A stretch of DNA of 64,000 bases from a virus. Its lineage: Duplodnaviria; Caudoviricetes. The notes under the pieces were generated by a model. That model did no database searches. It was not told the origin of the DNA and worked only from the letters and a program-made list of their open reading frames with translations. Location: positions 1 to 64,000 of the IMG/VR virus record IMGVR_UViG_3300021426_000077; one strand, 5' to 3'. Positions 1 through 64,000 of the stretch are shown here, piece after piece (position 1 is the first letter of the stretch; every line of letters begins with the position of its first letter). The position numbers and the translations under genes were made by a program.

Positions 1-86
1 GAAGGAACAGAAACAAAATTCATTTTGTTTCTGTTCCTTCTCTTGGAAATGAAAATAGAAATGGGTTTGGAAGTAGTGGTGTATAA
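1..86 (+). CDS. dut: dUTPase, C-terminal end (partial)
   Basis: Frame 3 reads ...KIHFVSVPSLGNENRNGFGSSGV-TAA, matching trimeric dUTPase motif V (RxxGFGSTG). The stop overlaps the next ATG (TAATG). Confidence 0.7.
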   Translation, partial: RNRNKIHFVSVPSLGNENRNGFGSSGV

Positions 87-583
87 TGCGGCGAACGATG
101 GCAGTTGATCAAAGCAGTCGAGTAACAGGCTGAGCTGTTTATGATAATGAAAAATTAACTGGTTGAGGTCATTTTTCAATTCCCGCTAATAAAACAATGG
201 GACAAAGATTAAAAACTTTTCAACAGCATTTAATTGAGTTATTAGATTTTTATAATATAGAACATTTATATTTTGAAGGTATACAATTACAAAATGGAAA
301 TGCAGAAACATACAAAAAATTAGCTATGATACAGGCTATGATATTTTTTACTTGCCATGTAAAAAATGTTCCATGCACAGAATTAGCTCCTTCTCATTGA
401 AGAAAGATTCTTAGTGAAAAATATAATTGAAAATTTGGTCGTAGTCGAGCTGAACAAAAACAAAAAGCAAAAGATCTTATAGAAGAACAATTTAATATTT
501 ATCCAACAGAAGATGAATGTGATGCTATCTGTTTAGGACTCGCGGGAATTCATGAAGAAAAAAAGAATAAATCAGCTTTTTAA
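86..583 (+). CDS. ruvC: RuvC-like Holliday junction resolvase, 165 aa (4 TGA=Trp)
   Basis: MRRTMAVDQSSRVTG-W(TGA)-AVYD..., YFEGIQ, PSH-W(TGA)-RK, EDECDAICLG: RuvC catalytic acidic pattern, with TGA at typical Trp sites. Confidence 0.85.
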
Positions 584-585
584 AT

Positions 586-630
586 AAAAAAAATGGGGCA
601 CTCTATTAATTTAGAGTGCCCCTTTATTTG
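586..630. terminator. Bidirectional intrinsic terminator between convergent units
   Basis: GGGGCACTCTA/TAGAGTGCCCC stem (595-622) with an A-run on the left and T-rich sequence on the right. Confidence 0.85.
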
Positions 631-631
631 T

Positions 632-730
632 TTATATTAATGAAGCAAAACCACTTATTACACAAGCTAAGCTTACAAAAATACAAGCTTTTAGAATTAA
701 TTCTATACTATCATCACTACTATTCGTCAC
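632..730 (-). CDS. Putative 32-aa single-TM peptide after endolysin
   Basis: GTG...TAA: MTNSSDDSIELILKACIFVSLACVISGFASLI; fills the gap between the endolysin stop and the terminator; weak RBS (GGGAAG). Confidence 0.35.
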   Translation of the reverse strand: MTNSSDDSIELILKACIFVSLACVISGFASLI

Positions 731-732
731 TA

Positions 733-1593
733 TTAAAACTTCCCATCATTAAGCGCACGCTGTAGTGCCATTGTAGTATACTTACCTCAGTCACCATCAA
801 GATAGTACTCAGTTCCATAATACCCAAGCTTGCGGAGATACTTCTGTAATCCAAGAGTAGAGTAATAACCAAAATCACCATCAAGGTAATACTCAGTTCC
901 ATAGTATCCTTTAGCACGGAGATAGCGCTGTAAAGCTAACTTGGAATAATAACCAAAGTCACCGTCGATTAGATAAGCAGTTGTGTAATAGCCTTTCTTA
1001 CGGAGGACTTTTTGTAATTTAGTCGCAGTATAAGAACCAAAGACACCATCAACATATAGCTTATCAGTAGTGGTGCTAGAAGAGCTAGAGCTACTGCTGC
1101 TAGAAGAGCTAGAATCGGCATCATAATTAGGACGAATAACACCGACGATGCAGCTATAAGGACGAGTGCGGCGAGCAACCATACCACTAACATTACCTTC
1201 AATAGTTTCTAGGCTTGAGCCAGTATTTCTCTCACAGAAGCCTGTGTGGTCAGCATTTGAGCTATAATATCCGCCATAGCTCCAGTCAAATAAAACTACG
1301 TCACCAGGCTTAGCTTGTGAAGGACGGAGAAGTTTACCCGCACTACGAGCAGCCGCAAGTAAACCACTAGTGCAAGCTGCAGTAGGACACCCTGTGCAAG
1401 AAATACCTAATTGAGCTAAACACCAAGAGACGAACATAGCACAGAAAGGAACTCCTGTTGTGCCAAAGTAAGGAGAATTAGTAATTTTAGCATATCAGCG
1501 ACCATATTTTGTGCCTTGCTCTGGATCGTTATAACGATTATAACCAACCTCTTTTGCAGCTACTTGTAAAAGGGCTTTAGCAGTTTTCGCCAT
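733..1593 (-). CDS. Endolysin: CHAP domain, Ser linker, 3 peptidoglycan-binding repeats; 286 aa (2 TGA=Trp)
   Basis: MAKTAKALL...GTKYGR-W(TGA)-Y...PFCAMFVSW...DHTG...TIEGN (CHAP Cys/His); C-terminal DGxFG/DGD-W(TGA)-G..T..ALQ repeats. Confidence 0.92.
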
Positions 1594-1717
1594 CTGCATC
1601 ACTCTCTTCTTTATCTTCTAAAGCGTGTTGAGCTTCAATTTCAACTTTTAAAGCTTCCCATGCTTCTGGATCAGGGAATTCTGTAATATCATATTCTAAT
1701 ACTTTTTCTTCTGCCAT
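1577..1717 (-). CDS. Small acidic protein (46 aa) between holin and endolysin
   Basis: MAEEKVLEYDITEFPDPEAWEALKVEIEAQHALEDKEESDADGENC; RBS GGAG; overlaps the endolysin start. Confidence 0.65.
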   Translation of the reverse strand: MAEEKVLEYDITEFPDPEAWEALKVEIEAQHALEDKEESDADGENC

Positions 1718-1733: not shown

Positions 1734-2150
1734 TTATTGTTGTTCCGCGGCTCTTTCTTCTTTGGTTAGACCATCTTTACTGTGAAGAAGCATTTGATAT
1801 CAAGCAGAGTTAGAAATTTCCGGATGAATTTCAGCAAAAATTTCTAATAAAGACCAAAGTTCCATTAATGCAAGTGAAATAACAACACTCATTAATACAG
1901 GTTGGAATCCTAATTCGAGTCCACCAAGTAACATTCCATCTACAACATCCGCGGCTACGATAATTCCAAAATTACTAATTTTGCGGATTAAGCCTTTGCG
2001 GAATTCATGACTAGAAAAATCGTGTTGAATAAACATTGCATTAATTACACCAAAAAGAACATCTAAAAGCGCAAGAAGAGCTAAAGCAATAATAACAATT
2101 TGTGCTTGCGGATCTTGAACTGGTTGTAAAAATACTTCTAACGGGCGCAT
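1734..2150 (-). CDS. Holin (phage holin family 4 / toxin-secretion type), 138 aa (1 TGA)
   Basis: Hydrophobic segments, FSS..FRKGLIRK and ELWSLLEIF motifs; directly upstream of the endolysin; reads through TGA at 1800 to TAA at 1734. Confidence 0.85.
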
Positions 2151-2274: not shown

Positions 2275-3801
2275 TTATCCTAATCATTCAAGAGATAGGT
2301 TACCATTTTCATCTGGTATAATTGCTCAATTACCATTACTAGTCCTAAAAACTAATTGAAAAGCGCATTTAAGAGTATTATCCATATCTGCAGTTGTTCC
2401 AAAAGCAATCCCTTTTTTATTTGCTTTAAAATCTACTAAAGAATAGACTGAATCAACAATACGTTTAATAGTTGGTAATACAGTTAAACTATCATGAGCA
2501 TCAATTTCAAATAAATAGGCTGAATTATCATCAAGATTTGCATTATTATTATCAAGATTTGTATTAGAAATGATTTGCGAAGCGGTTATTATAGTATCGG
2601 TTTTTGTAATTGTAGGAGTAATTGAATGTCAATTTGCAGCTATATCTGAATCATCTGTTGTTTTTATATATTTTATTCCAATATCTGTATTTGTTTGATT
2701 TAATCCATCAAGAGAAGTTATTGTTAAAGTAACTTGAATATCAATATTTTTACCCGAAGGGTTTGGATTTCCCTGATTATCACAACGGTCTATAGCAAGG
2801 CTAATTTGTGGAGAATTATAAGCAAGAACTGTAATAGTTGTAGTTATTGTACTAGTGCGTCCACGTGAATCTGTAACTGTTGATGAAACTGTTTTTGAGC
2901 CAGGTGTCAATGTAGCAAATGTTACTGTGGCTGCTGTTGAGCCAGATTTTGTAGATCCATCAAATGTAGTTGAATATGAAGAAATTGTTGAACCATTTGC
3001 TCCATTTGCAGTAATAGCAACTTGTAAAATTGATTTTCCTTGAATATATCCATTATAAGTAGTTAAATATTCTTCCGTATCAGTACAAGTGAAAGATATT
3101 GTTGGCTTTACTGAAGATGGAACTTGAAGTGTAACATTAACAGTTTTTGTTCCAACAGGGGTCTGACCATTTTTCGTTGTGCAAGTAAGTGTACCAGTCA
3201 TTGATGTATTATTTGGAATAAGTGAAGCATAATCTGCTACGGAAGGTGTTCATGAATACGATGTTCCAACATTAGATGCTATATTTTTTGTTGTCCCATT
3301 AAGAGTGAATGAGAGATCATGGGTAAAGCTCGATGATGCACGGTTGAGAGTAATTGTTACCGTATCTTCCATAGTAATTGACGATGAAGACAATGAAGGA
3401 GTCGTTGCACGAGGAATTGTTGTTAAATTTGTCTCAGCTAAAGATACTGTATATGTACCAGTTCATCCATAAGTACTAGACGTATAATTTCATGCCTGAG
3501 TTCATGAACCAGAAATTTTACCAGTCCCATCGCTATTATGTGAGACATTTTTTGAAACTGTTGCAATTGTATGTCAAGTTAGGTCTGAGCCAGAAGGATT
3601 ATTTGATCCTGAAAATGAAATTCCATTCATTGAACCTGAATATGATCTTGATCCAACATCAACATTACCATAAACTTGTAAATAAAATGTTACATTTGAT
3701 GTATTATTTTCAATGCTATACGAATTTTCAACTCAATATATACGCATTCCTGTAATTGGATTTGGATTGGTTGTCCCTGAATAACCAGATTTATAGGCCA
3801 T
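2275..3801 (-). CDS. DUF859-like siphovirus minor tail protein, 508 aa
   Basis: MAYKSG...IYW(TGA)VENSYSIENNTSNVT...LTTIPRATTPSLSSS...FTHDL...TDSRGRT...KGIAFG; continuous in code 4. Confidence 0.75.
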
Positions 3802-3815: not shown

Positions 3816-6800
3816 CTATCCAAAGCTTAAATTACCATTGCCTCTAGGAGTAAATTTAAATCCATTAATTTCAAGACTAGTTAAAAATATACCATTATCA
3901 ATTACTAATTGAGAGTCACTATTTATATGTCAAACTGGTAAATTGTTTTTAACCATTCCTATTTCTTCACTACTTAAAATAAGATATGATTCTTCTTCAT
4001 TTGGAACCTGTATTTTAATAACATCATTATCAAATTTAATATATCTATTTAATTGATTTCATTGATCTGTCTGTTCTTTATTATAATTTGTAAGACGTGT
4101 ATTAATAGTATTTCAATTAGTATTAAAATTATTATTTAAATCTTTAATATCTTCCATAACATGATCATATTTTTGATCATTTTTTTCTTGCCATAAATTT
4201 ATATCACCAATTTGTCCATTAATTTCAGAAATTGCTTGGCTTGAATCTACCTCTGCAATAAGATCATTAACATCTTCTTGAGAAAGACTTCAGCTAGTAG
4301 GTTTGTTACCCTTTTCTAGTTTTCATTTATTCACATACATAAAACGAGTACCATTTGCATTGTCTACTGAATTATACAATTGCAATCAAGGATTGGCTGC
4401 TTCAGAATCACTAGCTTGAGCAGAAGTTATAGTAAAAGTTTTTGATAAATGATCTGCATGAGAAATTAAAACAGTTTCATTATTTAATTTATCTTCAATT
4501 TGTGAAAAATAATCAGTTCCTTTTCAAGAATTAATTAATTGAATGGTACCTCCACCTCAATAAACTCAAACTCCGGTTTCAGCGGCTAACTTAGCAGAAT
4601 GATAAACGTTTACATCTCAAAGTTGAAGTGTATAAGTTTCACCTTCAATTAAATTTTCTGTTAAATTTAATTGATAAGCTCCATATGCTGCGCTGTCATA
4701 CAATTTAGGATTATTTTTTAATAAATTAACTCCGCCTATTTGAATTTTTTCATTTAATATTGAATTTTGAGTATTTATATTAAACTCACCAATAGTAAGA
4801 GAATTTGCTGCAATCTGATTAGCAGTAATTGAACCTGTAATAATATTTCCGCCATCAATAATAGTATTGCTATCATCAAGAAGAATAGTTGTATAATTAA
4901 TAGTACCATCTAAACGTTTACGCTGTTCACATGTATATAAATAAGGATATTTAGTTTCATTTCCTGCAGAAGAAGTCGCTAAAGGCGGTACTTTTAAAGT
5001 TCATTTATTATAGGCATTAGCAGTTAAAGTAATTCAATTTGTTGGTAAATTATTATTAGTAGTATTAAAAGTTACACTTGAATTAGAGCGATAATAAATA
5101 CGTTGTGTAGCAACTATTCCAGTAGGATCAACTTGTCTAAATCCTCCATCTATATAAGCATATAATTGTTTAGATGTAGTAAAATATAATTTTGAAGCTG
5201 AATCACTAGAAAGAATACCAAGAGGAATGTAAAAATTATTATCTTCAGAAATTGGCATATTACAAGTAAAAGCATTTTGAGAAGCTACTGTGAATGTATT
5301 TTTTGATATTGTTCCTTTTAAATACATAATTTTATTTGTAGCAGCTCCTTGTACTGTAAATGTTGTACCAGGATTAACACTAGGATATACTTCATATGTA
5401 TTTGTTGTTGTAGAACCAGATGTAATTGCTGCAGGAGCATATAAAATTGGATAAGAAAGATCAAATGTTAAATTAGCTGCTAATTCTTTATACCCAGCAG
5501 AAGTTCCTGCAATAATTTTTCCTGCGGCTATTGCAGCAGCAGCTTTAATTTGATTGCTATGCTGAGTACGATCAATAGTATTTGAATTATATGAAAAATC
5601 AGCAACTCAATAAGAACCATCATATGTGAAAGTTATAATTTGATTTGCACGCAAATAATTTGCTGCAGGTAAATTAGCTATACTTCCATTACTTAGATAT
5701 TTTATTGGCTTAGCAGTTGTTTCATTAACACTTAATTTTAAATTATCAGAAGGTGTTACAGTATTAATATTAGCAAATTTAACATTAACAGTAGTACCTG
5801 TTTTGAGAGTAAATGCAGTTGTTGTAGGAGAAATTGAAGCTGTTTTAGTTGCTTCACTTGCGACAGTATTGCATTCTGCATATCATAAAATTGCTGTATT
5901 TGCAATTTTAGAATCTACATCAGATTTAGTTGCGTAATTATTAAGACTTCCAATAGACACAGTAGATCCAATATTAACTCCACTACCACTTATAGTAATA
6001 TGTCCATCACCATCAAAAGTAATAGAAGCTGATGCATCACCAATAGTAAAAGATCTATTTGAATCAAAGCTAATTCCTTCGCCATAAGTTGCGACAATAG
6101 TACCAGAATTATCATAAACACTCATACCAGAATTAGAAAGTAATACTTTATAACCATTATTTTCATTTGCTACATATCATCCTTGAGCTTTTGGATTTCC
6201 CGAAGGAGCAACAATAGGAGTATAAGTATAATTACCAATAGAACCAGAACGAGTATAATATAAAGTATTTTGTTGTACTGTAGTATGTGTAGTTGCAATA
6301 TAATTTTCAACAGTACTAGGTAAAACTCATAATCCTGCAGATGTTACAGCTAAATGAGTCATAATATATTTAGATTGACTATCTGTTATATCAAGAATAT
6401 ATCATTCTTGACTTTTCGGATTTCCTACTGGATCTGTAACAGGCGTATATGTATATGGTTCACTACTACCGCTTCGTACAAAATAAACAGTTCCATCTTG
6501 AACTGTAGTATCTGTTGTTAGTGTATATGACCCATGTTTACTAATTCAATCTAATGTTCCAGCTACATCTTCTACAATAGATAATTGAGTAAGAGCATTA
6601 TTAGCAGCATTGTTAGCAGAGGCCGCGTCTCTTGCAGCATCTCTTGCAGAAGTTTGAGCAGAAGTTGCCGCATCAGCGGCTATACTAGCAGAAGTAACTG
6701 CGGCACTTGCACTTTGGACAGCTTGACTTGCTGATGTAACAGCTACACTTGCAGACTGAACAGCTATAGATGCCGCAGCAGACGCAGATTCTGCGTTTTG

Positions 6801-9800
6801 TGAAGCTAATAAAGCTGAATTTTCTGCATTAACTGCAGCAGCAGATGCAGTAGTGGCAGAAAGTTCCGCGGCACTGGCTGATAAAGCTGCGGCACTTGCA
6901 CTTTGAGCAGCTTGTGAAGCAGAAGTTTGTGCTGATGCAGCAGCATTAAAAGCAGCACTTGCACATGCAACCGCAGAAGCAGCTGCATTATAAGCTACAC
7001 TTGCAGAAGTGACAGCAGATGCAGCATAATCATAAGCTATACTTGCAGATTGAACTGCTGCACTTGCAGCAGAAGATGCAGATGCAGCCGCAGTAATAGC
7101 TAAATCAGCAGATGCTTGAGCAGTTGCTGCAGCACTAGCAGCTATATTAGCAGAAGTCTGAGCAGAAACAGCAGCATTATAAGCTGTATTTGCACACGAA
7201 ACTGCAGCAGAAGCCGCTAATTCTGCGGCTTTAGCATATCCAACTGCTGTACTTGCTGTTTGAAAAGCTTCACTTGCGCTAGCTACAGCGCTTGCTGCAG
7301 ATGTAGATGCTGAAGTGGCCATATCCATAGCATCATTAGCTGTTTCACTAGCCGCAGCTGCAATTTCTCCAATTGAATTATAGCTATTGGCTAAGACAGG
7401 ATTAGTATAATCAATATGTGGATTTTCAGGAGAATCATCATCTGACCAAACAATTTTTGATCGAGTTCATATATATTTTCCAGACTCTCATACTGGAGGA
7501 GTAACATCTCATCCTGAAGCAGATTCTTCTGGTTCGTTTGTAGAACTAGTTGTTTTTATATATTCTTCTGTAATTGAAGTTGGATAAATTCCCGCATCTC
7601 CATAAGCTCCAATAAGATGTACATTAGTTTCAGTTGAATCTCCGGTTGTATAATTAACAATTTCATAATTCCATAAATATTTATTATTTGCATCAACTTT
7701 TTGAGGAGTTGTACTTCAAGGACTAGTAGTTCCTTTTGTTGGAGCATTAGGAGTATTAGTTCTTACATAATAATTAGTAATACCAGTAATACCTTTTCCA
7801 TCTGCGCCATATGTTGCGGCTATATGAACAGTACTTCCAGTTGATGTTGCATTTGTTGTACCATCTGTATAAGTTATAAGTTCATAATTTCAAATATATT
7901 TTGCATCTTGAGTTGGAGTTGGAATTGGAGGAGTACTTCAATTATTTGTAGGAGCAATGGTTGAGCTATTATTACGAGCATAATATTCTGTAATACTATA
8001 GATATTTTTTTCTATATATTGAATAGGTTCTGCCCAAGAGTCAATAACATCAGAAGCTGCGGCAGAAATAGCTACCCCAGTGATAATTCAACACGGACTT
8101 GGTGTATTATTTCCTATTTCTGGAATATTTAAACTTCAACCATTAAAATTTTCACTAGGAGTGAGGCTACCATTTGCGAATGTATAAGTAAGATTTCCTG
8201 GCTTTTCTGCATCAGAGGGTTTAGTTAATGCTCGTTTATAAAGAGTAATTTTAGCTTGGCTTAAACCATCTTTACCATCTTGTACTAATAATATAGGGTC
8301 TGACCACTCTGTATCGGCTATATTATCAATTGCTGGAGATACTGTAGCTTCTATTACAGCGGTTGCCGCAGATACTCAACAGGGATCTGTGCCACTTGGA
8401 ATTGAATCTGATCATAGACTTCCTTGAGGAATAATTGCTCTATGAGTATCAAAATTGTAACTGATATTTTGAGGTTTATTAGATGGCTGTACAAAATATC
8501 TTTGATAAAGAAGAACGGTTGTAGAATTAAAGCCATTAACGCCAGCTTTTCCTTCTTCTTTCATAGAAGCTAATGATCAATTAAAAGTTTTTTCAAAACT
8601 ATTATTATCAGAAGTTGTAGCAGTTATATATAATGTGCCACTTTGAGCTACAGAAGTTGTTAAATTTGAGTTTACACTAACTGTAAAAGTATTATTTGAA
8701 TAAGTTACAGTTAATCCTTCATAAGGAATAAAATCAATATTCGTAATTGTAGCTGTTACTTGAGTACTACCCTTATATACAATAAATTGTGAAGAAATAC
8801 TAGCATTAATTGCCATGGAGTATGCTGTAGCAAATGTATGGCTTTCATCAGTTAAAAAAGCAGTGTAAACATTTTCACTTTCTACATTACTATTAATAAT
8901 AGGTATTGTCTGAGTATCAATTTGATTTTGAGTTTCTATATCATAAATTGTACATTTTACTAAATTTGCTGAATCAGAATTTGCAATTGAATATGTTACA
9001 TTTGATTGATCTACAGGGATAAAACTTGATGTTCAATTAATTCCATCAGATGATTCAGCAATTCTAAAATGACTTATATATTCTACTGAAGTTTCATTTT
9101 CTTTTGCTCTTGTAGAAGAAAAAGTAACTGCACTTGGAATTAATGTCGGTGGAGAAGTGGTTGTATCACGAATAATAACAGAAGGACTACAAACCAAATT
9201 ATATTGATATGAAGAATAATTAATTTCTCGATTTGAAATACAAATTGGATCTGAATAATTTGGAGTAGGATCTCCTACTAGTACAGTTTTGGTTCTTTGT
9301 CAAATATATTGTCCAGGACTGTAAGCTGGAGCAGAAATCTGTCATCCAGTTGTTGGTGCTTCAAGGTTAGACTGAGAAGACGCATATTCAACATCTACTT
9401 CTTTAACAACTCCTTGAGTTGCTATTTCTATTTCTTCAACCCTTTCTGTCAATTCTTCATTTGAAGAATTTATTTTAATTCAGCATCCAATTCCATTTTT
9501 TTCATCATAAATAAATGTTAATATATTTCCTGCAGATCATTTTGGTTTTAAAGGAATAACTGTATCCTCGTCTTTTACGTATATATTTCCTTTAATTGTT
9601 AAGGGATTACCTTTAATAGGAGCGTCTGTATCATTGGCTGCAGTATTTTCAAATAATGTTAAACTAGGTAATTCTGTTGCAGTATTATCATTTATAAATT
9701 TTACAGTTAAAAGCATGCCTTTAACTAACTTAATTTTATTTACATTATGATTACTAATAATTACTTCTTTATCAGCAATATTTGCGGCAGTTGAGCAAGT

Positions 9801-9884
9801 TCCATAAAAGCTGGAAGAAATTACATGAACTCCCGCATCAGTTCCTCCAGAAGAGGTTAACCTTGAAATTACTTGTCCTGCCAT
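3816..9884 (-). CDS. Giant tail fibre/host-specificity protein, about 2,022 aa
   Basis: Five track ORFs (starts 9884, 8816, 7328, 6125, 5327) share one frame joined by TGA; W-x-x-x-P...YIW tail repeats, Ala/Ser coiled coil, GGVNLL...KLEKGNKPTSWS module; ends with TAG. Confidence 0.8.
6590..7370 (-). repeat. Ala/Ser-rich heptad-like repeat inside the giant fibre
   Basis: SASAASSAAS/AVTSASxA repeats over about 260 aa, like lambda Stf-type stalks. Confidence 0.8.
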
Positions 9885-9966: not shown

Positions 9967-10743
9967 TTATCATGCTTCTACTCTAGTAATATAAATATTA
10001 TTATATTTTGTTGTGGTTCTTTGTGTAGTTGTACTATTATTAGTATCAAAATATCTGTTAGTAGGTCGTGTTGAAATAGTTGTTCCATTTATATATACAT
10101 CTCAACCTTTTCACCAAGGTACTCTATTATTGCCACTTGATCCAACTTCTCCAATAAACATATTTACATATTTGCCCTGCGGAGAATATACGCAAACGCT
10201 ACGATATAATGGAGTTGTTTTACTTGTTAAAGTACAATAATAAATTTTCATATGTGTGTAATTTGCTGCTGATGCTTTTAAAGTAATACTTGTTTGTGAA
10301 GGAGCTTGTGCTACTGGTTCTCATTCAAATAAAACATCCGGTGCTAACGCTGTATGTCAAGCTGCTTTCTGTTTACTTCCAATAGATCCAACAAAATGTT
10401 CGTCTTTCACAAAATTAATTACTGGTGCTCCAGATGGAGTAAGCTCTAATGAGATACCATTATATTTATCGACGCCATTTATTTTTCTTTGTGAAAAAAA
10501 TTCTATACCTTGATTTCCATTTGATGAAAATTTTGGCTGTATACACCCAATTTTAGTATTTTCTATATCTGAAAATTCTAATATTGTATTTCCTTCTAAA
10601 TCAGAACTTGGTGTAGTAGTATTGATTAAATTTGTCGATTTTAAATAAATAGGTAATTGACTATCTACAACATCAAAATTTACAGCTGTTTTATTAATAG
10701 CAATTCCATTTCCGCCAGATAAAAAACTTAATTGTGTTGACAT
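9967..10743 (-). CDS. Tail-tip module paralog A, 258 aa
   Basis: MSTQLSFLSGGNGIAINKTA...KAAW(TGA)HTALAPDVL...ASAANYTHMKIYY...TRVEAW(TGA)-TAA; own RBS. Confidence 0.75.
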
Positions 10744-10757
10744 ATAATCTCACCTAC

Positions 10758-11498
10758 TTACCAAGCTTCTACACGATATACATAAACACTTAAGTGATAA
10801 TAAGTCGTTCTTACTGTTGAACTAGCACCTTGTGTATCCATATAATAAGTATAATTAGGTGAATCACCAGCAATTCGTAAAGTAGTTTCATGTATTTCTA
10901 CTTGTGTTGCTTTTGGATAATAAAATCCAGTATCATTACCTGGTGCCCCTAGAAATAAGTCAATTGATTTTCCATTAGGATTAATTACATCAACAGAAGA
11001 ACAAATTAAAGTGTCTGAATAGTAAATTCGCATATGTTCATAATTTGCAGCTGATGCACTTAATGTTATAGGATATGCTAAAGTACCGCCACCATAGTCG
11101 TATAAAACATTCGGTTCTAATGCAGTATGTCAAGCTTTTTTACATGCTGGATTACGCATAGTAACTACAGGATTTCCATTAGAATCAATTCCTAAATGTA
11201 ATCCATTATAATATTCCCCAGAATCTGTTTCTTTTTTTGAAAACATAGATAGCGCTTGATATTTATTGTTATAAAAATGATTACCAAAACATCCTATTGT
11301 TTCATTATTTGAATCTGTTAAAATTAATTGATTATTTCCATCAGCATCTGATTGAGAAGAATTATTAACAAGATTATTTGATTGCAAATTTAAAGTTTTA
11401 ACAGATAATATATTAGGAAAAATTTCCGTATTATTTACAGCTATTGGAGAAGTTCCAATTGCAATTCCTTTATCTGATGAAAAATTTATTAATGCCAT
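10758..11498 (-). CDS. Tail-tip module paralog B, 246 aa
   Basis: MALINFSSDKGIAIGTSP...KAW(TGA)HTALEPNVL...ASAANYEHMRIYY...YRVEAW(TGG)-TAA. Confidence 0.75.
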
Positions 11499-13150
11499 TA
11501 TCCTCACCACTCATCATTTCAAGCTTCTACTCGTAGAATAAAAATAGGTTTTGTATCATTTCCTGGAGTAGAAGGCCTTTTAGTAGTTGTGGCTCCTGAA
11601 GTATAAAAACTATATCTTCTTTTAATAACAGACCCATTTATAAGTACATCTACCGCGGCAGGTCAATAAATACCACTACCATATCCTGCATATCCAATAA
11701 ATAAATTAACATATTTTCCATTAGGCTTGAATACTTCAACCGAACTTTCTGGAACTCGTGTTTCAAAATACTTATAATAAATTCGCATATGATTATAATT
11801 AGCTGCAGAAGCACTTAATTGAATACCTGTAGTATCATCTGCACCAGGAATTTGCTTACCATTAAATAATATATCTGGTTGAAGAGCTTTTAATCAAGCT
11901 AGTCTAGAAGCATTATCTTGAAAACCTATATCTGGAGTTCCATCTGATAAAATATTAAAATTAATACCATTATAATGGCCATCTCGATGAGCATAAATGC
12001 GCATACCTTCCATGCCATTTGTTCAAGAACTATATCCAATTCAACCTAATAAAGAATTATTGGAATCTAAAAATTTAACTCCTTCTTTACTAAAGATATT
12101 TTCTGAAGGTGGTGTATTATTGGTAATATTTGAAAGTTGGACTTTAATTGGTAAAGTTGTTTCAATTTTATTGTTTGTAACCGCAGTTTTTCCAATAGCT
12201 AAACCAGTTCCACCTGCTAAAAGACTTAAAGTTTTAAATTTTACTGGAATTGCTCCATAACTTATTACTGAACCATTATGTGTATCGGTTAAAGTTACTC
12301 GAAAACCATAAGTTTTATTTGGATTAAAATTTCCATTAATAAACTTTTCTGTAGTTCCAGATGATCCAGATAAAGTATCAGTTCCTACTAAAGTATATGT
12401 AGTATCTGAAGATAACTTATATTCAAATTTTAAAGATGATCCTGCGTAATTACTATCTGTACTTCATGTGACAATTACTTTAGCATAAGTTCCATCTTCT
12501 GAAGGATTTTGTGTAGAATCGCATCTAATAGCTTCTACGCTACCAATAGTAGGTTCAATATAATCTAAACTTCAAACTGCATATAATGCTAAAGCAGCAT
12601 TGCCAGTATATTTTCCGCCAGAATTATAAGCAACTGTCGTTGAGGTTGAAGAAGTTGCCCATCCTTTAAAAGAATACCCAGATCTTGTCGGTATTGTTGT
12701 AGAAAGTGTTAAATCTTGACCATAATATTTGGTCTGATTCGCAGGCGCGCCTTCACCGCCATTTGCGTTATAAGAAACAATATAAGAACTTAGAGCAGGA
12801 ATTGTAATAGTGGTCGTAGCAGTACTAGTACCATCTCTTCAATTAGAATGGTTATAAGTTACAACTTTTAAAGTAATGTTTCTTGCAGATGTTCCTCTTG
12901 CGATACTTTTGCTAATACTTGCCATTTGTTTCTGTACTGTAGCGCCACTAGCTGAATAAAAACTATTATTAGTAGTTTTCGCCGAAGTTCCATCTATAGT
13001 AACTGTACAGTCTACATAACCAATATCAAAACTTCATGCCATAGATTCAAAACCACCACTTAAACTAACACTAACCGCGGTGTTAGACTGAGAAGTGCTG
13101 TAATTTCCATATGCTCTTCAGTGATCTACTTCATTACCATAAAACGCCAT
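11498..13150 (-). CDS. Minor tail protein with a Listeria-Bacteroides (InlB B) repeat and tip module C, 550 aa
   Basis: VSYNANGG...TRSGYSFKGWAT...LYAVW repeat; GGTGLAIGKTA...ASAANYNHMRIYY...RVEAWNDEWWG; TAA overlaps the ATG of paralog B. Confidence 0.75.
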
Positions 13151-25408: not shown

Positions 25409-25428
25409 TTTATCTCACACTCCTTATT

Positions 25429-49354: not shown

Positions 49355-49639
49355 TTACTCTTTAGTTATCTCAGAAGAGTCGTCTTCACTAGGAAGATTT
49401 ACTGGATCAGTAATCGAGTTATCAAAAAGAGATATATCTTCAACAACTTCTGGCTCTTTAACAGACGGTTCTACTTCTTCGGTAGATTCTATATTATTTT
49501 CAGTAGTCTCTTTATTTAAAGACTCTGTATTATCAGAAGTGTCTGTATTTTCATCTTCTGGATCATCGGCTACTGAGGTTTCTTCTAAGGTGCCCGCACT
49601 AACCTCAGGTTTTAAATTTAATTTAGTGGGGCTATTTAA
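49355..49639 (-). CDS. Putative -1 frameshift extension of the major tail protein (94 aa, acidic)
   Basis: Met-less open frame LNSPTKLNLKPEV...EITKE-TAA beginning at the slippery A AAC CCT TAA. Confidence 0.65.
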   Translation of the reverse strand, partial: LNSPTKLNLKPEVSAGTLEETSVADDPEDENTDTSDNTESLNKETTENNIESTEEVEPSVKEPEVVEDISLFDNSITDPVNLPSEDDSSEITKE

Positions 49640-55177: not shown

Positions 55178-55825
55178 TTAAACTTTACAAGTTTCAATTT
55201 TTCTAATTAGATGACCACATCCAACTCGTGTATCAACATAACAAGGAATATTGTTTTTACGAAGTTGTTCACAGAAAAATAAATCTTCTGATAATACTCC
55301 TTTATGAGAATTATTATAATTTACTCAATCAAATCAAGGATAACTAATTTTATTAAAAATAGAGGTTTTAATGAGAATACACCCCATTCCTCCACCGTGA
55401 ATTTTTACTAAATATTTATTATCATTATGGAGTTTTATTAATTCTTCTTTAGTATATGCACTTTCTTTAGAATAATTAAAATATAATTTATTATACTCAT
55501 CTTTAAGTTTATATACACAAGTTTTATTTAAAGTTTGATCATCTAAATGCCTACGCACATAAAAGCCACTTACAACGTCAACATTATGAGAAAGAAGATT
55601 GAGAAGAGCATCTTTTGGAGGAGTTACATCATTGTCAATCATGAATACATAATCATAATTACCATCTAATGTTAATTGCGCAATTTTATTACGTGCAGTT
55701 GCACAATCATATCCTCGCACAAAGTTAAAAGAGCATTCATTATCACCCTTATCTAAATCTCAAATAGATTTAAAAGTATCTGGTGTAATATTTTCAAAAG
55801 TTGGAACCGCAATTAAAATTTTCAT
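55178..55825 (-). CDS. GT-A fold (GT2-like) glycosyltransferase, 215 aa
   Basis: MKILIAVPT...ARNKI...YDYVFMIDNDV (DxD)...GMGCILIK...PW(TGA)F...SEDLFFC...VGCGH. Confidence 0.85.
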
Positions 55826-55826: not shown

Positions 55827-56558
55827 TTATTGCGCTCTCTTTGAATGTTCTTCTAAAACTGTTTCTCAATCCATCTCTTTATATTTTTTTATATATTCAC
55901 GTCGTGGGACTTTGATTGAATTTTGTCACTCTCTATATCCTGCAAAATGCACAATTGCAGGTGAATCAGTATAGCCAGTAACTTTAGTTTCATTATAACA
56001 AACAGGAATCTCAGAAACATGATCAGCAAAATAATTTACCGCATCTTGATCTACATAAGGTACTTTTTTATTATTTAAAAAATCAATTAATTTTTCATCT
56101 TTTTTAAATTTACGCATCTTATCTAAATCAAATAATGCGACTCCAGCATTATAATACAATGGACCGTAGGGTTTGTAAGTGGACAATGTTTCTTCCACCA
56201 TTGCGACTCAATCATCTTTTCTTAAAAAATCTCAAATAGGATTAATATCTCTTACACAAATAGTATCTACATCAAGTTGAAGTATTCTACTAACTTCTGG
56301 TAATAATTGAGTATAACAAACTCTAATCATAGCCATATAAGTGAATTGTGTTCTCATATTTGGACCGTCTTTAGGAAAAAACTTTTGCCCACTTACATTA
56401 TGACATTGAATTATATCTGGAAGTTCATGCGGAAAATTATTATCTTCAATGAAAAAATGAACTGTATCTACTGAGCTATTCGCAATAAGTGATTTAGCTG
56501 CAGTTTCCATTGAATCATATAAGTTTCTTGTACCTGTATATGCCGCATGCTTTTCCAT
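55827..56558 (-). CDS. Glycosyltransferase family 8, 243 aa
   Basis: RILQLDVDTIC (DxD), YYNAGVALFDL, DQDAVN, AIVHFAG; joined by TGAs. Confidence 0.88.
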
Positions 56559-56581
56559 TTAAATTAATTTATCTTATTAGA

Positions 56582-57679
56582 TTACTCGCCAGATTCGCCT
56601 TCAGCGCCAGATTCACCCTCGGGCTCGTCAACAGGAAGATTATGTAAACGAGAAGCCTTCTTAAGATCGGTGTTGCGATAGCTGAAGATAAAGTTGGTGA
56701 AGAAAGTAGCTACGCCAAACTTCTTGTAAGCCTGGAAGTCGGTGCTCCAATCATCGTTATCTTCAACAGTACGAACCGCAGTTTGACCCTCAAAGACAAT
56801 CTTAACAGGCTTGTTGTCTTGACCAACGGGGAAGATATAAGCCTGAGCAGGATCGATTACCTTCTCAGTATTAGTTTCATCAACCATGGACTGAGGAAGA
56901 ATAATTACATTGTGACCCTTGTAGTTGCCAAGCCAACCTTCGGCCCAGAGACGATTCTTCATATCATCAGAAACCCAATTGGTCTGGGGAAGCATCTTAG
57001 CAGCAAACTCAAAGGTACAGTAAATAGAAGCCTTGCCATAGCTATCAGCAATAGCAAGTAGCTCGTCCATAGTGGCCTCGTCAAAGCCCGCAACCTCAGC
57101 GCGCTGAACCGCAGGTAGAGAAGCAACTACAGCTGCAAGAGCCTTAGCAATCTCGCGATAAATAAATTCGTCCATGCCTTCCATGACAAGACTGGTTAAC
57201 TCAGAGAACTGAATGCGGCCATCAAGCATTTCCTCGAAGCCAATACGAGCCGCGCCACCGATAGCGCTAGTCTCAACAGTCATGGACTTACCATCAAGCA
57301 TGAAGACCTCATAACGGCCGGCAAGACCGACACGAGTAACGAAAGTCTTAGCGCGCTTACGAGCAGACTCAGTGATGCGAGTACGGAAGACCGCCTTATC
57401 GCCCTGAGCTACATTGCGAATCTCTGCGAATTGGGCATATTGAGCCTCAACACGAGCAGGAAGAACCTCGTCAATAGTCTGCTCAATTAGACGGAAAATA
57501 AGATTCTTGTTCTCACGGTAATCACTATAAGAACCAGCTAGTTTACGGAACTCGGTTGCAAGAGCCTCATTAACCTGATCGAGAGTGTAGCTCTCGTCAT
57601 TGAAGGAATAGGCTGTAGGAGCAGAAGGATCTGCCTTAAGAGCAATACGAGCTAAAGATAATAGATCTTTGTATTCCAT
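56582..57679 (-). CDS. Major capsid protein, 365 aa
   Basis: Follows the scaffold and decoration genes; LIEQTIDEVLP...FAEIRNV; strong RBS; four Trp, all TGG. Confidence 0.85.
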   Translation of the reverse strand: MEYKDLLSLARIALKADPSAPTAYSFNDESYTLDQVNEALATEFRKLAGSYSDYRENKNLIFRLIEQTIDEVLPARVEAQYAQFAEIRNVAQGDKAVFRTRITESARKRAKTFVTRVGLAGRYEVFMLDGKSMTVETSAIGGAARIGFEEMLDGRIQFSELTSLVMEGMDEFIYREIAKALAAVVASLPAVQRAEVAGFDEATMDELLAIADSYGKASIYCTFEFAAKMLPQTNWVSDDMKNRLWAEGWLGNYKGHNVIILPQSMVDETNTEKVIDPAQAYIFPVGQDNKPVKIVFEGQTAVRTVEDNDDWSTDFQAYKKFGVATFFTNFIFSYRNTDLKKASRLHNLPVDEPEGESGAEGESGE

Positions 57680-57696
57680 TCTACATCCTCCCTTCA

Positions 57697-58191
57697 TTAA
57701 GCCTTAATGCACTGAAGCTTGACCGCAGGTTGACCATCGGGTAAAGTATACTCTTTAACAACCTTGAAAACAAGATCGCCAGAATTACCCGCAGTAAGAA
57801 TACCATCATTACCAGGAACAACGGTATCGTTAACCTTTAGGCTAGTGCCATCAGCAAACATGTTAGTAGTAAAAATATCACCAGCTACAAGGCCAAAGAC
57901 GCGAGGATAAATCTTGCCATCATAAGAATCCTCAACCTTTTGAGCCCAATCCTTGTGCATCTGATGACGCTCATCATAGAGCTTTTCCTCGTTGTAGACG
58001 AGCATCCAAGCGCCGTCGCCTGTAAAGTTAACCTCGCCAGCAGCGTAGTCATACTTTACAAACATGCCATTCTCAAGAATGGTAATATTTTCAGCAGCAG
58101 GGAGCTGTGCATAAACACGACCGTCACGAGGAGCAGAAAGATGGTTAGGCTCAACCTGGCCGTAACCCTCTCGTTTAAATGTAATAGCCAT
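57697..58191 (-). CDS. Capsid decoration/cement protein, 164 aa
   Basis: GYGQVEPNHL...LENGMF...GDIFTTN...TLPDGQPAVK; lies between the scaffold and MCP genes. Confidence 0.65.
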   Translation of the reverse strand: MAITFKREGYGQVEPNHLSAPRDGRVYAQLPAAENITILENGMFVKYDYAAGEVNFTGDGAWMLVYNEEKLYDERHQMHKDWAQKVEDSYDGKIYPRVFGLVAGDIFTTNMFADGTSLKVNDTVVPGNDGILTAGNSGDLVFKVVKEYTLPDGQPAVKLQCIKA

Positions 58192-58211
58192 ATTACATTC
58201 CTCCTTTTACT

Positions 58212-59546: not shown

Positions 59547-59561
59547 TTTCCCCCCTTTCTA

Positions 59562-61121
59562 TTAACCCTCAGATTCTTCATTTGCGATTGTTTTGTCTGA
59601 TTTTTCATCTGGTGAAAGCTCTGGGCGTCCACCTTGCTCGTCCGCAGATGCGTTTCCATCATTATCGCCACCAGACTGTTGAGTTTTGCTAATGGTAGAA
59701 GACATCTGAGGAGGAGTAAATATCTCAACAAGCTCCATAATTTGATTCTCAAATATGGCAGTAGCAAGTACTGTACTTGGAGATTGTCCAAGAGCAACTT
59801 GTGGTAAAAGTTTAGAGAAGCCAATTTGAGTTTGCTCTTTATAAAGCTTGGAAAGATCTTTGTAATTATAAATTGTTGTGGGTAACATTTGTACCCTATA
59901 TAAAAGACGCTTTGGATTCTTGTTAAACATCTTTAACAAAGACTCCGCATAATCTTGGAATTGTAGAACTAAATCAAACATTGTAGCTTCATCATTTGCA
60001 ATTGACTTTTCAAGCGCTAAATTACCACTTGTATTAAATTGCATTTGACTAACGCCAGCTTCATTATAGACTGTTCTTTCCACTTTCTCGAGCTGGTCGG
60101 CCGCAGACTCATTACTGTGATCAGATAAGTCTTCAACTTTAACATCTGCAAAAGTAGTAAGAACATTAATACCAATTGCTTTGCCTAACATTTCAACTGC
60201 ATTCTTATGAAGTTCTCGAGCTTCATCTACGTCAAATATTAAGTCACCATTTTTATCAATTGGCATCTCTTGGATGATTAATCTAAGAAGTTGTTGTTCC
60301 ATCTTTTGTTTATCTAAATCTTGAGCATCTTCAAGATCCATTAATTTTGGAACAATAGAAATAAATAATGGAATATCTGAATTGTTTAAATTAAATTTAA
60401 CAGTACATTCTGGATCTAGAGTAAACCAGCCTTTTCCACTACCAACGTAATCTTCATCCATTTTTCCATGCTTATATTTAATATAAGCTTGTTGGAATTC
60501 TTTGGGGAACATTTTTAAAACTTTAATGCGATAGTCTACATCTTTAAATTGTTCATCAAAGAATTTAACATTAAATTCTATAATATAATGCCCATTTAAT
60601 TTATATCTTGAACGACAATAATCAATAGGAAGTTCTTGTAGGTAGGCCGCATCTTTTTGTTCAATTTTATATCCATAATAACAGCCGTTCCGGAGTACCT
60701 TAAGTGCAATTTCCCCAAAGGTGCTCTTTAAACGACAATTATCTAAGAATGTATTAGTCTTTAGTCAACCTTCAATAACTTTATCATCTTTAATTTTATC
60801 ATCATATCTGATAGGAGTAATTATCCAATCATACCGATATAGATAAGCCATATAACGACAAAGGCGAGAGTAAATACCACTTTTAACAAAGAAATAATTG
60901 GAAATGGAACGGAGTTCTTTTGTTTCATTATTCTCCAAAGCCCTCATTATATCATGTTTTTTAATTCTGTGATGATGATTACGATCAACAAATTCAGATG
61001 CTTTAATTACAACATCATCTCGATAAATTTGCCCGTTAATTCTCATTTTATTAAATTCATGCGGAGACCGTGTTGAGTTATTTTCTGAGGCAATTAAACG
61101 GAAATCTTTTGTATCACTCAA
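59562..61121 (-). CDS. Portal protein, 519 aa (1 TGA)
   Basis: LRSISNYFF..SGIYSRLCRY...VYNEAGVSQMQFN...GGRP; position after terminase; TTG start. Confidence 0.82.
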
Positions 61122-61133
61122 TATTCGACCCCC

Positions 61134-61490
61134 TTAATAACCAGCTGCTTTCATAATATAATCATATGATAATTTGGCTTCATCATAATAAGGAATACAA
61201 ATTAGTTTTATATTATGAGCTAAACAATATTTACGTTTTTGCATATCATTATATTTTTGCCGTCCTACACCTTTTTTCCCACCAAATTTATCTACTGCTG
61301 TGTAGTGTTGTTTACCCTGAGCTTCTATTAAAAATTCAAGCTCACCATCCTCCGTAAAAACGGCAAAATCAAATCTTAGATGCCTGCCACTAGAAGCAAC
61401 TAAATCATCAAACTCATATTCTTCTTCAAAGGGAATATCATAATCAGTTAAAATATTATGAATTTTAACTTCCATAGTAGAACTCATCAT
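61134..61490 (-). CDS. PD-(D/E)XK (DUF2726/Vsr-like) endonuclease, 118 aa
   Basis: EYEFDDL...LRFDFAV...LIEAQGKQHY...DMQKRKYC...IKLICIPY. Confidence 0.78.
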   Translation of the reverse strand: MMSSTMEVKIHNILTDYDIPFEEEYEFDDLVASSGRHLRFDFAVFTEDGELEFLIEAQGKQHYTAVDKFGGKKGVGRQKYNDMQKRKYCLAHNIKLICIPYYDEAKLSYDYIMKAAGY

Positions 61491-61571
61491 AATATACCCC
61501 TTACGTCAAAATATTTATTCAATTAAATATGAATCTCTACAATATGTAATTTTCTAATTTTGCCCCAAAAT

Positions 61572-63320
61572 TTAATTATAAAACATAAAGTCTTTAATAT
61601 TTCTTCTTTTAATTTTCTTTGAACGATCTTCTTGTAATTTACAATAATATAAACCATAAATTAGAGCAGAAAACTTATCTTTTTTAATCTTTTTTGAATT
61701 CTGTTTTAAAATAATATTTGCACCTTCATTATCTGTAATTAAATTAGCCATTTGTTCTTTTAAAATAGAAGTTTGAACAAATGGCATCAGATAATCTGCA
61801 CGTTGAGATTGAGACATTTTCTTACCTTGAGCTTGTGACATTAATTTATTCTTCGCGGTAGTCTCGTCAATTAGAAATAACACGCGGCCCGCATTAATCT
61901 CTGACTGAGTATAAGAATACATTTCTGAGTTAAGACCAACATTAGCTTTCATTATATACATAGCTTCATATATTGTATTTTCAGTTTTCATATTTTTGTA
62001 ATGATTATCTTCATCATTCATAACGCCCCAATTATAGAGCGTTTCTCCCGTGTCTGGATCTACAGTATCCATTGTCAACATATCAACAAGACCTGCGCCT
62101 AAACCGTTACCGTCGATAACCGCAACTTTACAGTGATATTGCTGGAATAAACGCTTTAATTTAAGAGCTTGCATACCAAAATGCTCTTCCTCAAAACTGT
62201 AAATATTAACAACTCGTTTGCGGGGAATATCGCCAGAACTAGGAGTGACCTTAATAATAACTGCTTCTGTAGAACAACCAAATCTACCAACGTCAACACC
62301 AATTACATAATAACCATCTTTAGATGTTTTGCTAGAATATTTTCATTCCGGAAGATTAATACGGCGATTGCGATCAAATCTTTCTGAATTAAAGAAGGCA
62401 GACTCTACATCGCCTGACCAATGAGATTCATACTCACGTTCAAAAGAATCCTCATTAAAAGTACCATCTTCGCGTAAATCCCGCACGAAATTCTTACTAA
62501 GAAGACCTTCCATTACAGGAACTCTCCAAGAGCCACCTAAAATCATAGCTTCTTTTGGACGCGCTACAGACATGCAAAGTAACTGAATAAGTTTCTCATA
62601 GCTAAATGTGCCTTTATAGCCTGCTGAAGTTACAAAAATTTGTGATTTATTTAATTGCTCTTTTGGATCAGTCTGACCTTGAATCATACGGTCAACATTA
62701 AGTGTAGGAAGTAAAACTTCATTAAGAAGATCTTGATCTAAGCTTACACATTCCTCCGCAAGTAAACTTTGAAAACGACGTCCACGAGTCTTTTCACTTT
62801 GAGCAACATTTTCTAGAGAACTGCCATTTTTAAAAGTATAAATAACAGTATCTTTTGTGCGGGATGTTCGAGCACGTGTACCTCTAGTATCTCATATAAT
62901 TTCTCGTTCCATTGCTGGAATAAGTTTACAAATTTCGTCTACTTTTCCGCCAAGAATTTCTGCAGATTGTCCTTTACCGCCCGCAACAGTAGCTATTTTA
63001 GCACCAGGATAAAGAACACATCGCAACATTAATGCCATAATAGAAATAAAAGACTTGGATCAAGCACGAACGAAAGTCGCATAGACATATTTATGTCTAA
63101 AAATAATTCGTAAAAACATTCTTTGATAAAAATAAAATTTAAAATTATATGGATTTCCAAGAGATAGATAGTAATCAACTAATTTATCTGGATAAAGACG
63201 TCAATAAGCAATTAATTTTTGATATTCTGATAAATTATTATGTACATGTAATTTAATTGTTTCATCATCTAAATCTATATCTTTTTTATTAGATGTTTTT
63301 AATATATCTCTAAGAGCCAT
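61572..63320 (-). CDS. Terminase large subunit, 582 aa
   Basis: FVRAW(TGA)SKSF P-loop, RGRRF..LLAEE, IFVTSAG, FEREYESHW, YVIGVDVGR, VIDGNGLGAGLVD, KDKFSA. Confidence 0.92.
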
Positions 63321-64000
63321 TAAATATCACCTGCTAAGAATCTTTCAAGAGCTTCGGCTTCAGCTTCAACTTCATTATCAATGAAATTACCCCAATCTTC
63401 AGCTTCTTCATCTGTGAGTGTTTCTGCCTCAGCCTCTTCCGCAGACGTTACAAGGCCCGCATTTAAATCAATTTCTGAATTTTCAGCTTTCTCAAGCTTC
63501 TCAATATAAGATTCAATTAGATCGCCAAGACCTAATTCTTCACTTACAAGAGCATAATTATAAGCTTTAAGGTCTTTAATAGTAAAGTCTATTTTATCTT
63601 GCGGATACTGGTCTGGATCAAATTGTGGTAAATTAGGAATTATACCTCCATCTTGTTCACAAAGACGTACTAATTCTCCAATAGAAGAGAGAACTTGCTG
63701 TCTATCTTCTTTATTTTGAGCTTCAGTAAACTTACCGCCTTTGCGGAGTTGGTCAAACACGCCCGCGAGATTCTTATATCCTGTTAAATCTCCAACATCT
63801 AAACATTCATCCATTTTAAGAGATGTTTTGCACATCTTTTTTAAAACTTCTTCTCGGTCTGTATTTAATTCGTACTCTTGGGCATATTTATTATACATTG
63901 TTTCCATTTTAATTCATTGTTCTGGAGTATAAACAGTACCTCATTTTAGCATTAAATAATTTATATCTTCTTCTGTGAGTTGATCTGTCCAATAAGTAGC
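63320..64000 (-). CDS. Terminase small subunit-like protein (5' partial)
   Basis: LMLKW(TGA)GTVYTPEQW(TGA)IKME...KKMCKTSL...SIGELV...DKID; stop overlaps the terminase ATG. Confidence 0.6.

Follow-up and report, generated by a model that had tools for sequence, protein, structure and literature searches.

The first 64 kb of the linear, 100,427-bp IMG/VR virus record IMGVR_UViG_3300021426_000077 (positions 1 to 64,000, hereafter the window) is the late-gene half of a large ruminant-gut siphovirus, comprising its lysis, tail, head and packaging genes. In the late genes of this phage, UGA is very probably decoded as tryptophan by means of a phage-encoded tRNA with the anticodon UCA (tRNA(UCA)), in a walled host that most likely uses the standard genetic code. 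The record has a GC content of 32-34% (32% in the window) and a CheckV completeness of 72%. A protein identical to one of the phage tail proteins is found on a contig of 131,982 bp, from which the full genome is probably approximately 130-140 kb. Libraries of both DNA and RNA from the guts of sheep, goats and other animals, drawn from 8 studies, contain near-identical sequence.

Reading of TGA codons in the window

Under genetic code 11, the window contains 83 fragmented open reading frames (ORFs) of at least 100 amino acids (aa), the longest of which is 438 aa. When TGA is treated as a sense codon, ORF length increases to as much as 2936 aa and 38 non-overlapping minus-strand genes occupy 94.2% of the window. 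The terminase large subunit (TerL), portal protein, tape measure protein and endolysin reach their full length only when TGA is read as a sense codon, and frames of up to 2936 codons run without TAA or TAG in DNA of 32% GC. The 38 genes contain 256 in-frame TGA codons and 55 TGG codons. Tryptophan makes up 1.55% of their residues with TGA counted; from TGG alone it would make up 0.27%, which is implausible. Every one of the 38 ORFs stops at TAA or TAG, a pattern that results in part from the ORF-calling procedure. An earlier reading of the window made from its sequence alone (the sequence-only reading) had anticipated these results, claiming that code-11 fragments fuse in frame into long phage genes, that gene ends are TAA or TAG and that paralogous tail genes end in RVEAW with the final residue encoded by either TGA or TGG. 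The last claim is exact: RVEA is followed by TGA at 9967-10764, by TGG at 10758-11522 and by TGA within 11498-13150.

The sequence-only reading had also proposed aligning homologs at the TGA columns, and tryptophan proves to be the best residue there. Close IMG/VR relatives have TerL identities of 52-99%, and those at 80-99% likewise use TGA; the codons aligned to TGA in such relatives are TGA (114), TGG (21) and others (14). IMG/VR scans with an 803-aa protein and the DUF859 protein gave almost no matches; several of the search peptides contain tryptophan, which back-translates to TGG, so that recoded relatives are missed. In relatives without sense TGA (Enterococcus phage VRE9_4, Geobacillus virus E3, the code-15 phage phAss-1, a Collinsella metagenome-assembled genome, Olsenella uli and a 67% GC temperate phage), the residues opposite 69 aligned TGA codons are tryptophan (18), phenylalanine (11) and tyrosine (10), with the rest scattered. 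Tryptophan at 18 of 69 positions compares with a background of 1.0% (binomial P 9e-21). The BLOSUM62 sum is highest for tryptophan (W 151, Y 83, F 56), glycine, serine and cysteine are at background level, and the spread of residues mirrors that opposite the phage's own TGG codons. Because the residues are tryptophan and then phenylalanine and tyrosine, with glycine, serine and cysteine at background, the sequence comparisons give good support to a tryptophan reading of TGA in the window genes.

Individual columns vary in what they contribute. The two lysin TGA columns have tryptophan in 113/120 and 65/85 homologs, most of which are of the GC-rich type, and column 184 of the DUF859 protein, also TGA, has tryptophan in 127/149 representatives. 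The sequence-only reading had placed TGA at conserved tryptophan sites of the lysin, RuvC-like, LamG and terminase proteins. This held for the lysin. It did not hold for the terminase P-loop, where the site near the Walker A motif has F/T/F as its counterparts in the cultured relatives. The columns of the RuvC-like protein have tyrosine or tryptophan. In the LamG protein, 9/14 TGA columns are tryptophan-dominated; these were dropped as independent evidence because at least some, and perhaps many, of the homologs are from recoded phages translated with code 4.

Suppressor tRNA

ARAGORN identified no tRNA in the 64-kb window. Ten tRNAs are located at 91.6-95.1 kb of the record, and one of these, at 94,246-94,339 on the minus strand (L010:11246-11339 in the coordinates of a subregion, L010, used below), has the anticodon UCA. 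The sequence-only reading had held that the phage must bring its own UGA suppressor and that none lies in the window; both statements agree with a tRNA(UCA) approximately 30 kb beyond the window in the same record. The rest of the record was also scanned, as that reading had suggested, for tryptophanyl-tRNA synthetase (TrpRS) and release factor 1 (RF1), and neither a class-Ib synthetase (TrpRS) nor an RF-1 domain was found in this 72% complete record.

ARAGORN labels the tRNA(UCA) 'SeC'. With Infernal it fits the general tRNA model (57.5 bits) with a 7-bp acceptor stem, A1-U72 and G73. The A1-U72 pair and discriminator G73 are identity elements of bacterial tRNA-Trp. The anticodon loop is CUUCAAA, and the variable region has a 22-nt insertion. 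This insertion forms a second stem-loop whose loop, CUCCAAA, is the wild-type tRNA-Trp anticodon loop; a variable loop of the normal 4 nt and the T arm come after it. The arm bearing UCA adjoins the D arm, and the arm bearing CCA adjoins the 4-nt variable loop.

In a pattern search, the same five-arm design was recovered from another 14 IMG/VR contigs, which are mostly 40-177 kb long; the invariance of the loops across these tRNAs is partly imposed by the search pattern. A1-U72 and G73 are invariant in 13/13 parsed five-arm tRNAs, and the two outer base pairs of the second arm covary (GC, CG, UA, AU and GU types). RNAalifold predicts five arms with compensatory changes in 11/25 pairs. A single-sequence fold of the tRNA(UCA) is no better than shuffles (z = -0.8), and the comparative structure was used.

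Published activity data are available for tRNAs of this type. Seki et al. 2025 (bioRxiv 10.1101/2025.10.30.685624) tabulate UGA suppression by 31 phage tRNA(UCA) in E. coli extract with no added synthetase. On reading these sequences, 12/31 were found to carry such a second arm. All 12 gave 27,000-59,000 units at UGA, compared with 5,400 for the no-tRNA control, and most single-arm tRNA(UCA) were at background. Seki et al. report tryptophan insertion by all 13 active tRNA(UCA) that they analysed, which are not listed by number. One of the 12 second-arm tRNAs has an acceptor stem almost identical to that of the tRNA described here, and another is from the Agate representative genome of Borges et al. 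(bioRxiv 10.1101/2021.08.26.457843). The CCA-bearing arm thus correlates with suppression activity in published raw data. The text of Seki et al. does not mention the extra arm, and no description of a dual-anticodon-arm tRNA was found in the searchable literature. The second arm may serve to keep the suppressor tRNA recognizable to TrpRS.

A 78-nt RNA is encoded on the minus strand (L010:8690-8767, record ~91,690-91,767). It matches only the tRNA-like ends of the transfer-messenger RNA (tmRNA) model, with almost nothing between them, at 56.8 bits, which is above the gathering score; the match suggests a mini-tmRNA that lacks the tag. Near this RNA there are weak matches to YrlA (Y RNA-like), and an RtcB ligase gene is located at L010:1840-3099.

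Distribution of TGA and proposed code switch

TGA is unevenly distributed among the genes. Eight window genes use TGG alone for tryptophan (within 47067-47609, 49636-50790, 50922-51710, 54034-55132, 56582-58191 and 61134-61490). These are likely to encode high-copy virion proteins, including the probable capsid and tail-tube proteins; it appears that proteins made in many copies do not rely on suppression. TGG is also the only tryptophan codon in four genes beyond the window, those for a 599-aa protein, a calcineurin-like phosphoesterase (Metallophos), RtcB and a SpoU-type methylase. TGA decoding is needed by the holin, lysin, tail fibres, tape measure protein, terminase and RuvC-like resolvase. 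Borges et al. reported that late and lytic genes of recoded gut phages cannot be completed before a code switch. With TGA-laden late genes and TGA-free RtcB and SpoU-type genes, the core finding is therefore a further case of published late-gene recoding: phages that read TGA as tryptophan in gut hosts of standard code, and that share this late-gene bias and type of tRNA, have already been published.

The proposed course of a temporal code switch in this phage is as follows. Host TrpRS would charge the phage tRNA(UCA). As this tRNA accumulates, it would outcompete host release factor 2 (RF2), such that the TGA-laden late genes could be completed. Genes needed earlier (RtcB, SpoU methylase and phosphoesterase) and those for the highest-copy virion proteins would avoid TGA.

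Several points count against UGA decoding as outlined above. Many TGA codons do not correspond to invariant tryptophans but to sites that are variable or simply aromatic, and variable columns are uninformative. Some tryptophan counts are circular, as the database had applied code 4 when translating recoded relatives. The missing 28% of the genome could contain a gene for TrpRS or RF1. RNA-library contigs identical to the DNA keep TGA at 52573, 55325 and 55334, the last two in the glycosyltransferase pair at 55178-56558; these are assembled contigs, and RNA libraries can hold carried-over DNA, so that TGA kept in RNA is weak evidence. In the 66,000-100,427 part of the record, several ORFs have TGA 5-15 codons before the terminal TAA or TAG, such as codon 215/220 of a GIY-YIG gene (93,483-94,145). 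These near-terminal TGA codons may be genuine early-phase stops, with the second stop acting as a backup after the code switch.

Gene content of the window

The replication module is divergent, starting at the RuvC-like gene, and is cut by the contig end. The principal genes of the window are as follows.

86..583, plus strand: RuvC-like Holliday junction resolvase (weak Pfam RuvC match, E-value 0.0025; 30% identity to the resolvase gene of Enterococcus phage VRE9_4; 4 TGA, 0 TGG)
733..1602, minus strand: endolysin with CHAP and three PG_binding_1-like repeats (Pfam; 2 TGA, 2 TGG; 42% GC, compared with 32% for the window)
1734..2150, minus strand: holin, Phage_holin_4_1 (Pfam E-value 7e-11; 1 TGA)
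2275..3801, minus strand: DUF859 tail protein (Pfam E-value 1.7e-44; 9 TGA, 0 TGG)
3816..9884, minus strand: tail-fibre-like protein, 2022 aa (a single frame only with TGA as sense; 34 TGA; no Pfam family matched)
9967..10764 (TGA) and 10758..11522 (TGG), minus strand: two paralogous tail-tip genes ending RVEA-W (from their translations)
11498..13150, minus strand: tail protein with Listeria-Bacteroides repeat (Flg_new) and RVEAW C-domain (Pfam; 11 TGA)
15560..17332, minus strand: tail protein, double LamG (Laminin_G_3; Pfam E-value 2.5e-40; 14 TGA, 0 TGG)
18210..19310, minus strand: GT2 glycosyltransferase with TPR repeats (Pfam; 10 TGA)
23009..25420, minus strand: tail/baseplate protein (phrog_32343; PHROGs E-value 3e-37; 13 TGA; collinear with VRE9_4 CDS0034)
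25429..31107, minus strand: 1892-aa protein with six Flg_new repeats (56 TGA, 5 TGG)
31129..33450, minus strand: tail protein (phrog_30026; PHROGs; 11 TGA)
38115..46925, minus strand: tape measure protein, 2936 aa (Pfam PhageMin_Tail E-value 3e-23; matches the VRE9_4 tape measure; 25 TGA)
49636..50790, minus strand: high-copy virion structural protein (phrog_2729; PHROGs and VRE9_4 comparison; TGA-free)
55178..55825, minus strand: Anp1/GT2-like glycosyltransferase (Pfam; 3 TGA)
55827..56558, minus strand: GT8 glycosyltransferase (Pfam; 4 TGA)
56582..57697, minus strand: probable major capsid protein (38% identity to VRE9_4 CDS0006 in the head module; 0 TGA, 4 TGG)
59562..61121, minus strand: portal protein (32% identity to the annotated VRE9_4 portal; 1 TGA)
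61572..63320, minus strand: TerL (tblastn 41-49% to Enterococcus, Geobacillus and Alicyclobacillus phages and phAss-1; 4 TGA, 3 TGG)

The role of the probable major capsid protein is assigned from the position of its gene. The tape measure protein has a Hint/PT-HINT domain at residues ~1693-1829 (Pfam E-value 2.8e-20). Three glycosyltransferases (55178-56558 and 18210-19310) are embedded in the virion gene block, and this arrangement suggests that the virion may be glycosylated.

Host

The host is most likely a walled Gram-positive bacterium with the standard code. The lysis cassette consists of a Phage_holin_4_1 holin and a CHAP/PG_binding_1 endolysin; because this lysin targets peptidoglycan, the host has a cell wall, as the sequence-only reading had argued from the CHAP domain. 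A standard host code is indicated by the phage's own tRNA(UCA), its TGA-free gene set, its peptidoglycan lysin and the existence of relatives with other codes.

With respect to phylum, a high-GC, Coriobacteriia-like member of the Actinomycetota is slightly favoured. The nearest cultured-phage lysins are those of Bifidobacterium, Actinomyces and Streptomyces phages. Among contigs from one genome per species, the only two lysin matches are in Collinsella and Olsenella, and 13/401 sampled Coriobacteriia genomes have a match (best 56% identity). The lysin relatives outside the phage's own family match over nearly the full length (66, 59, 50 and 47% identity) and are encoded on temperate-phage contigs of 65, 65, 67 and 57-60% GC (4 of the 4 contigs read). 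A GC-rich amino-acid composition is found in 86/120 lysin homologs. In a protein atlas, queried with the 93% identical database protein P0001, the lysin architecture is mainly that of Actinomycetota, which serves as a lead only. The likeness to Coriobacteriia phage lysins that the sequence-only reading had proposed is therefore matched by genomic data. Within the phage family, this type of lysin has been retained even where members have diverged to ~60-75% identity.

The likeness extends to other genes on the GC-rich contigs. The Flg_new tail protein (11498..13150) has 43% identity over 239 aa to a protein of a 65% GC contig (L059), the C-domain of the paralogous tail-tip proteins that ends in RVEAW is 36-37% identical (~37%) to that of a second 65% GC contig (L060) and the Anp1/GT2-like glycosyltransferase (55178..55825) is 39% identical to that of L059. 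L059 DNA matches 40/401 Coriobacteriia genomes at 65-81% nucleotide identity, mostly in a recombinase and in some cases in the lysin and Flg_new genes; as the comparison covered Coriobacteriia alone, this is a hint only. No prophage near-identical to L059 was found in the 401 Coriobacteriia genomes.

A domain of unusual composition is encoded outside the window. Three tandem genes (89,005-89,616; 89,660-90,382; 90,502-91,473) have TGA at codon 53, and the C-domain of the third (minus strand) has a GC content of 58-60% in a 32% GC genome. This C-domain is 71% identical to the product of a gene located between the tail protein and lysin genes of the 57-60% GC temperate phage (L070). Judging by its composition, the simplest source would be replication in a GC-rich cell, with the domain still unameliorated. 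It has no match in 301 Coriobacteriia genomes, a result that is uninformative.

A sibling phage (L050, an ENA contig of 123,769 bp) has a CHAP domain that is 87% identical and is fused to SLH repeats. SLH domains are present in 14/201 sampled Coriobacteriia genomes, one of which has a CHAP+SLH ORF, and because SLH occurs in Coriobacteriia the sibling lysin is no objection to such a host. The wall-binding domain is swapped among sibling recoded phages (PG_binding_1 here, SLH in L050 and DUF5648 in the 177,336-bp L040), with CHAP domains up to 87% identical.

Several observations tell against an actinobacterial host. The genome set sampled for likeness to the lysis and tail-tip genes was one of Coriobacteriia alone. 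The phage has 32-34% GC, compared with 57-67% for the Collinsella/Olsenella loci and the related temperate-phage contigs. Every cultured relative infects Bacillota, and the hosts that Borges et al. predicted for recoded clades are, code-25 phages apart, Firmicutes or Bacteroidetes. Host prediction by clustered regularly interspaced short palindromic repeat (CRISPR) spacers, proposed in the sequence-only reading, gave no host: in a comparison of window positions 44001-64000 with the 401 Coriobacteriia genomes, no spacer match was found, a weak negative since it covers a third of the window and a sample of the class. Nine matches of 27-52 nt were obtained, and the three best, when checked, had no flanking repeats (taken as chance matches).

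The alternative, to which a little less than an even chance is given, is a low-GC Bacillota host (rumen Bacilli or Clostridia) with the same recoding, in which case the Actinomycetota-like lysin and tail-tip cassettes would be mobile modules and not host markers. This would be consistent with the 15 virion and packaging genes that are collinear with those of Enterococcus phage VRE9_4 (23-48% identity), with TerL relatives in Enterococcus, Geobacillus, Alicyclobacillus, Bacillus, Lactococcus and Clostridium phages, with the Firmicutes/Bacteroidetes predictions of Borges et al. and with a genome of 32% GC. The phage relatives of the DUF859 protein are from mostly Bacillota hosts (Streptococcus, Bacillus and Lactococcus phages, plus Microbacterium), and the holin family, Phage_holin_4_1, fits as well; however, a Dp1-type holin is also encoded on a GC-rich contig. 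A mobile cassette accounts less readily for the presence of all four out-of-family lysin relatives on 57-67% GC contigs, the GC-rich composition of most lysin homologs, the retention of the lysin type through the divergence of the family and the tail-tip and glycosyltransferase genes common to the GC-rich contigs. The unameliorated 58-60% GC domain would imply DNA exchange inside a GC-rich cell, and SLH, as in the sibling lysin, is present in Coriobacteriia, including in the one CHAP+SLH ORF.

The claim of the sequence-only reading that this is an AT-rich recoded phage of a GC-rich host thus stands on the lysin and tail-tip likeness, and is opposed by the CRISPR result, the Bacillota-collinear virion module and the 32% GC of the phage itself. 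A fuller version of the actinobacterial reading is offered tentatively: a 32% GC virulent lineage would infect ruminant-gut Coriobacteriia and would bridge a GC gap of ~30 points with its own tRNA set, the stop codon being read by the canonical arm and recognition by any bacterial TrpRS being preserved by the CCA arm.

Other explanations for the TGA codons

It is highly improbable that the host has code 4 in its own genes (as a Mycoplasmatota-like bacterium or another with UGA=Trp) and that the phage mirrors the host code. In the code 4 of Mycoplasmatota, as here, a tRNA-Trp(UCA) reads UGA and TGA outnumbers TGG in AT-rich DNA. However, the reassignment in this phage is viral, affects only part of the genes, competes with host RF2 and operates in a walled target cell. 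The phage carries its own tRNA(UCA), the eight window genes and those for RtcB, SpoU, Metallophos and the 599-aa protein use only TGG, and the lysis cassette targets peptidoglycan. The code also varies in the lineage (phAss-1 uses code 15, the contig L018 has no TGA at aligned sites and cultured relatives are standard), and tRNAs of relatives are active in standard-code extract.

It is scarcely credible that TGA encodes something other than tryptophan, whether glycine (code 25), serine, cysteine or selenocysteine by way of a long-arm tRNA, or that it reflects low-level readthrough of real stops. The 'tRNA-SeC' label of ARAGORN (UCA anticodon, long extra arm and possible 8-bp acceptor stem) is in favour of such a reading. 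A long variable arm with G73 is also a recognition feature of seryl-tRNA synthetase (SerRS). Against this, the residues opposite TGA are tryptophan, then phenylalanine and tyrosine, with glycine, serine and cysteine at background; Infernal favours a 7-bp acceptor stem with A1-U72 and G73; and the loop of the extra arm is that of a tRNA-Trp anticodon arm, not of a Ser/Sec variable arm. The 256 TGA codons in 38 genes cannot each have a selenocysteine insertion sequence (SECIS) element, and the 13 published tRNA(UCA) all inserted tryptophan. Misassembly, a pseudogenised phage or UGA-to-UGG RNA editing has negligible probability, as no supporting point was found, frames of up to 2936 codons are free of TAA and TAG at 32% GC, eight independent IMG/VR contigs have TGA at the same positions, a near-identical stretch occurs in runs of 8 studies and, with regard to editing, the DNA-identical RNA-library contigs keep their three TGA codons.

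Relationship to known recoded phages

The closest known systems are the Agate-clade TGA-recoded animal-gut phages of Borges et al. Like the phage described here, these are ~130 kb, have low GC, are found in the ruminant gut, prefer TAA as a stop and encode their own tRNA(UCA) but neither TrpRS nor RF1. The same five-arm tRNA is found in the Agate representative GiantTortoise_AD_1_scaffold_344 and in Agate-type contigs from cattle. Agate genomes are ~127-154 kb with recoded structural and lysis modules, which this phage matches (100 kb at 72% completeness; 131,982-bp contig). Size, habitat, code and tRNA type fit the Agate clade; the clade itself is defined by TerL phylogeny. Compared with the recoded clades of Borges et al., for which Firmicutes or Bacteroidetes hosts are predicted, the lysis and tail-tip genes of this phage point to Actinomycetota.

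The head, tail and packaging modules are collinear with those of phAss-1 and the proposed Phassvirus group, which includes Enterococcus phage EF1/VRE9_4 and Enterocloster phage PMBT10 (PMC10607447). These phages have TerL and portal proteins 41-43% and 32-38% identical, respectively, to those of this phage, genomes of 134-142 kb and large tRNA sets. The codes differ: phAss-1 recodes TAG to glutamine, cultured members of the group use the standard code and the phage described here reads TGA as tryptophan. The Phassvirus-group lysins are unrelated to the lysin of this phage, and their known hosts are Bacillota.

Jade phages, which carry a code-change operon of TrpRS, RF1 and tRNA-UCA, likewise use TGA for tryptophan in lysis and structural genes in a standard-code host. 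In contrast to these, the present record (72% complete) has no detected TrpRS or RF-1 domain, and its tRNA keeps host-type tryptophan identity elements and adds the CCA-loop arm.

Implications

The recoding itself adds one further well-documented genome to a known phenomenon. The suppressor design offers a directly testable idea for a stop-decoding tRNA that stays chargeable by an unmodified host TrpRS. If the host is indeed actinobacterial, this would be the first stop-codon-recoded phage assigned to Actinomycetota, and recoding would not be confined to phages of Firmicutes and Bacteroidetes. A phage-host GC gap of ~30 points would then be possible, which would undermine host prediction based on composition.

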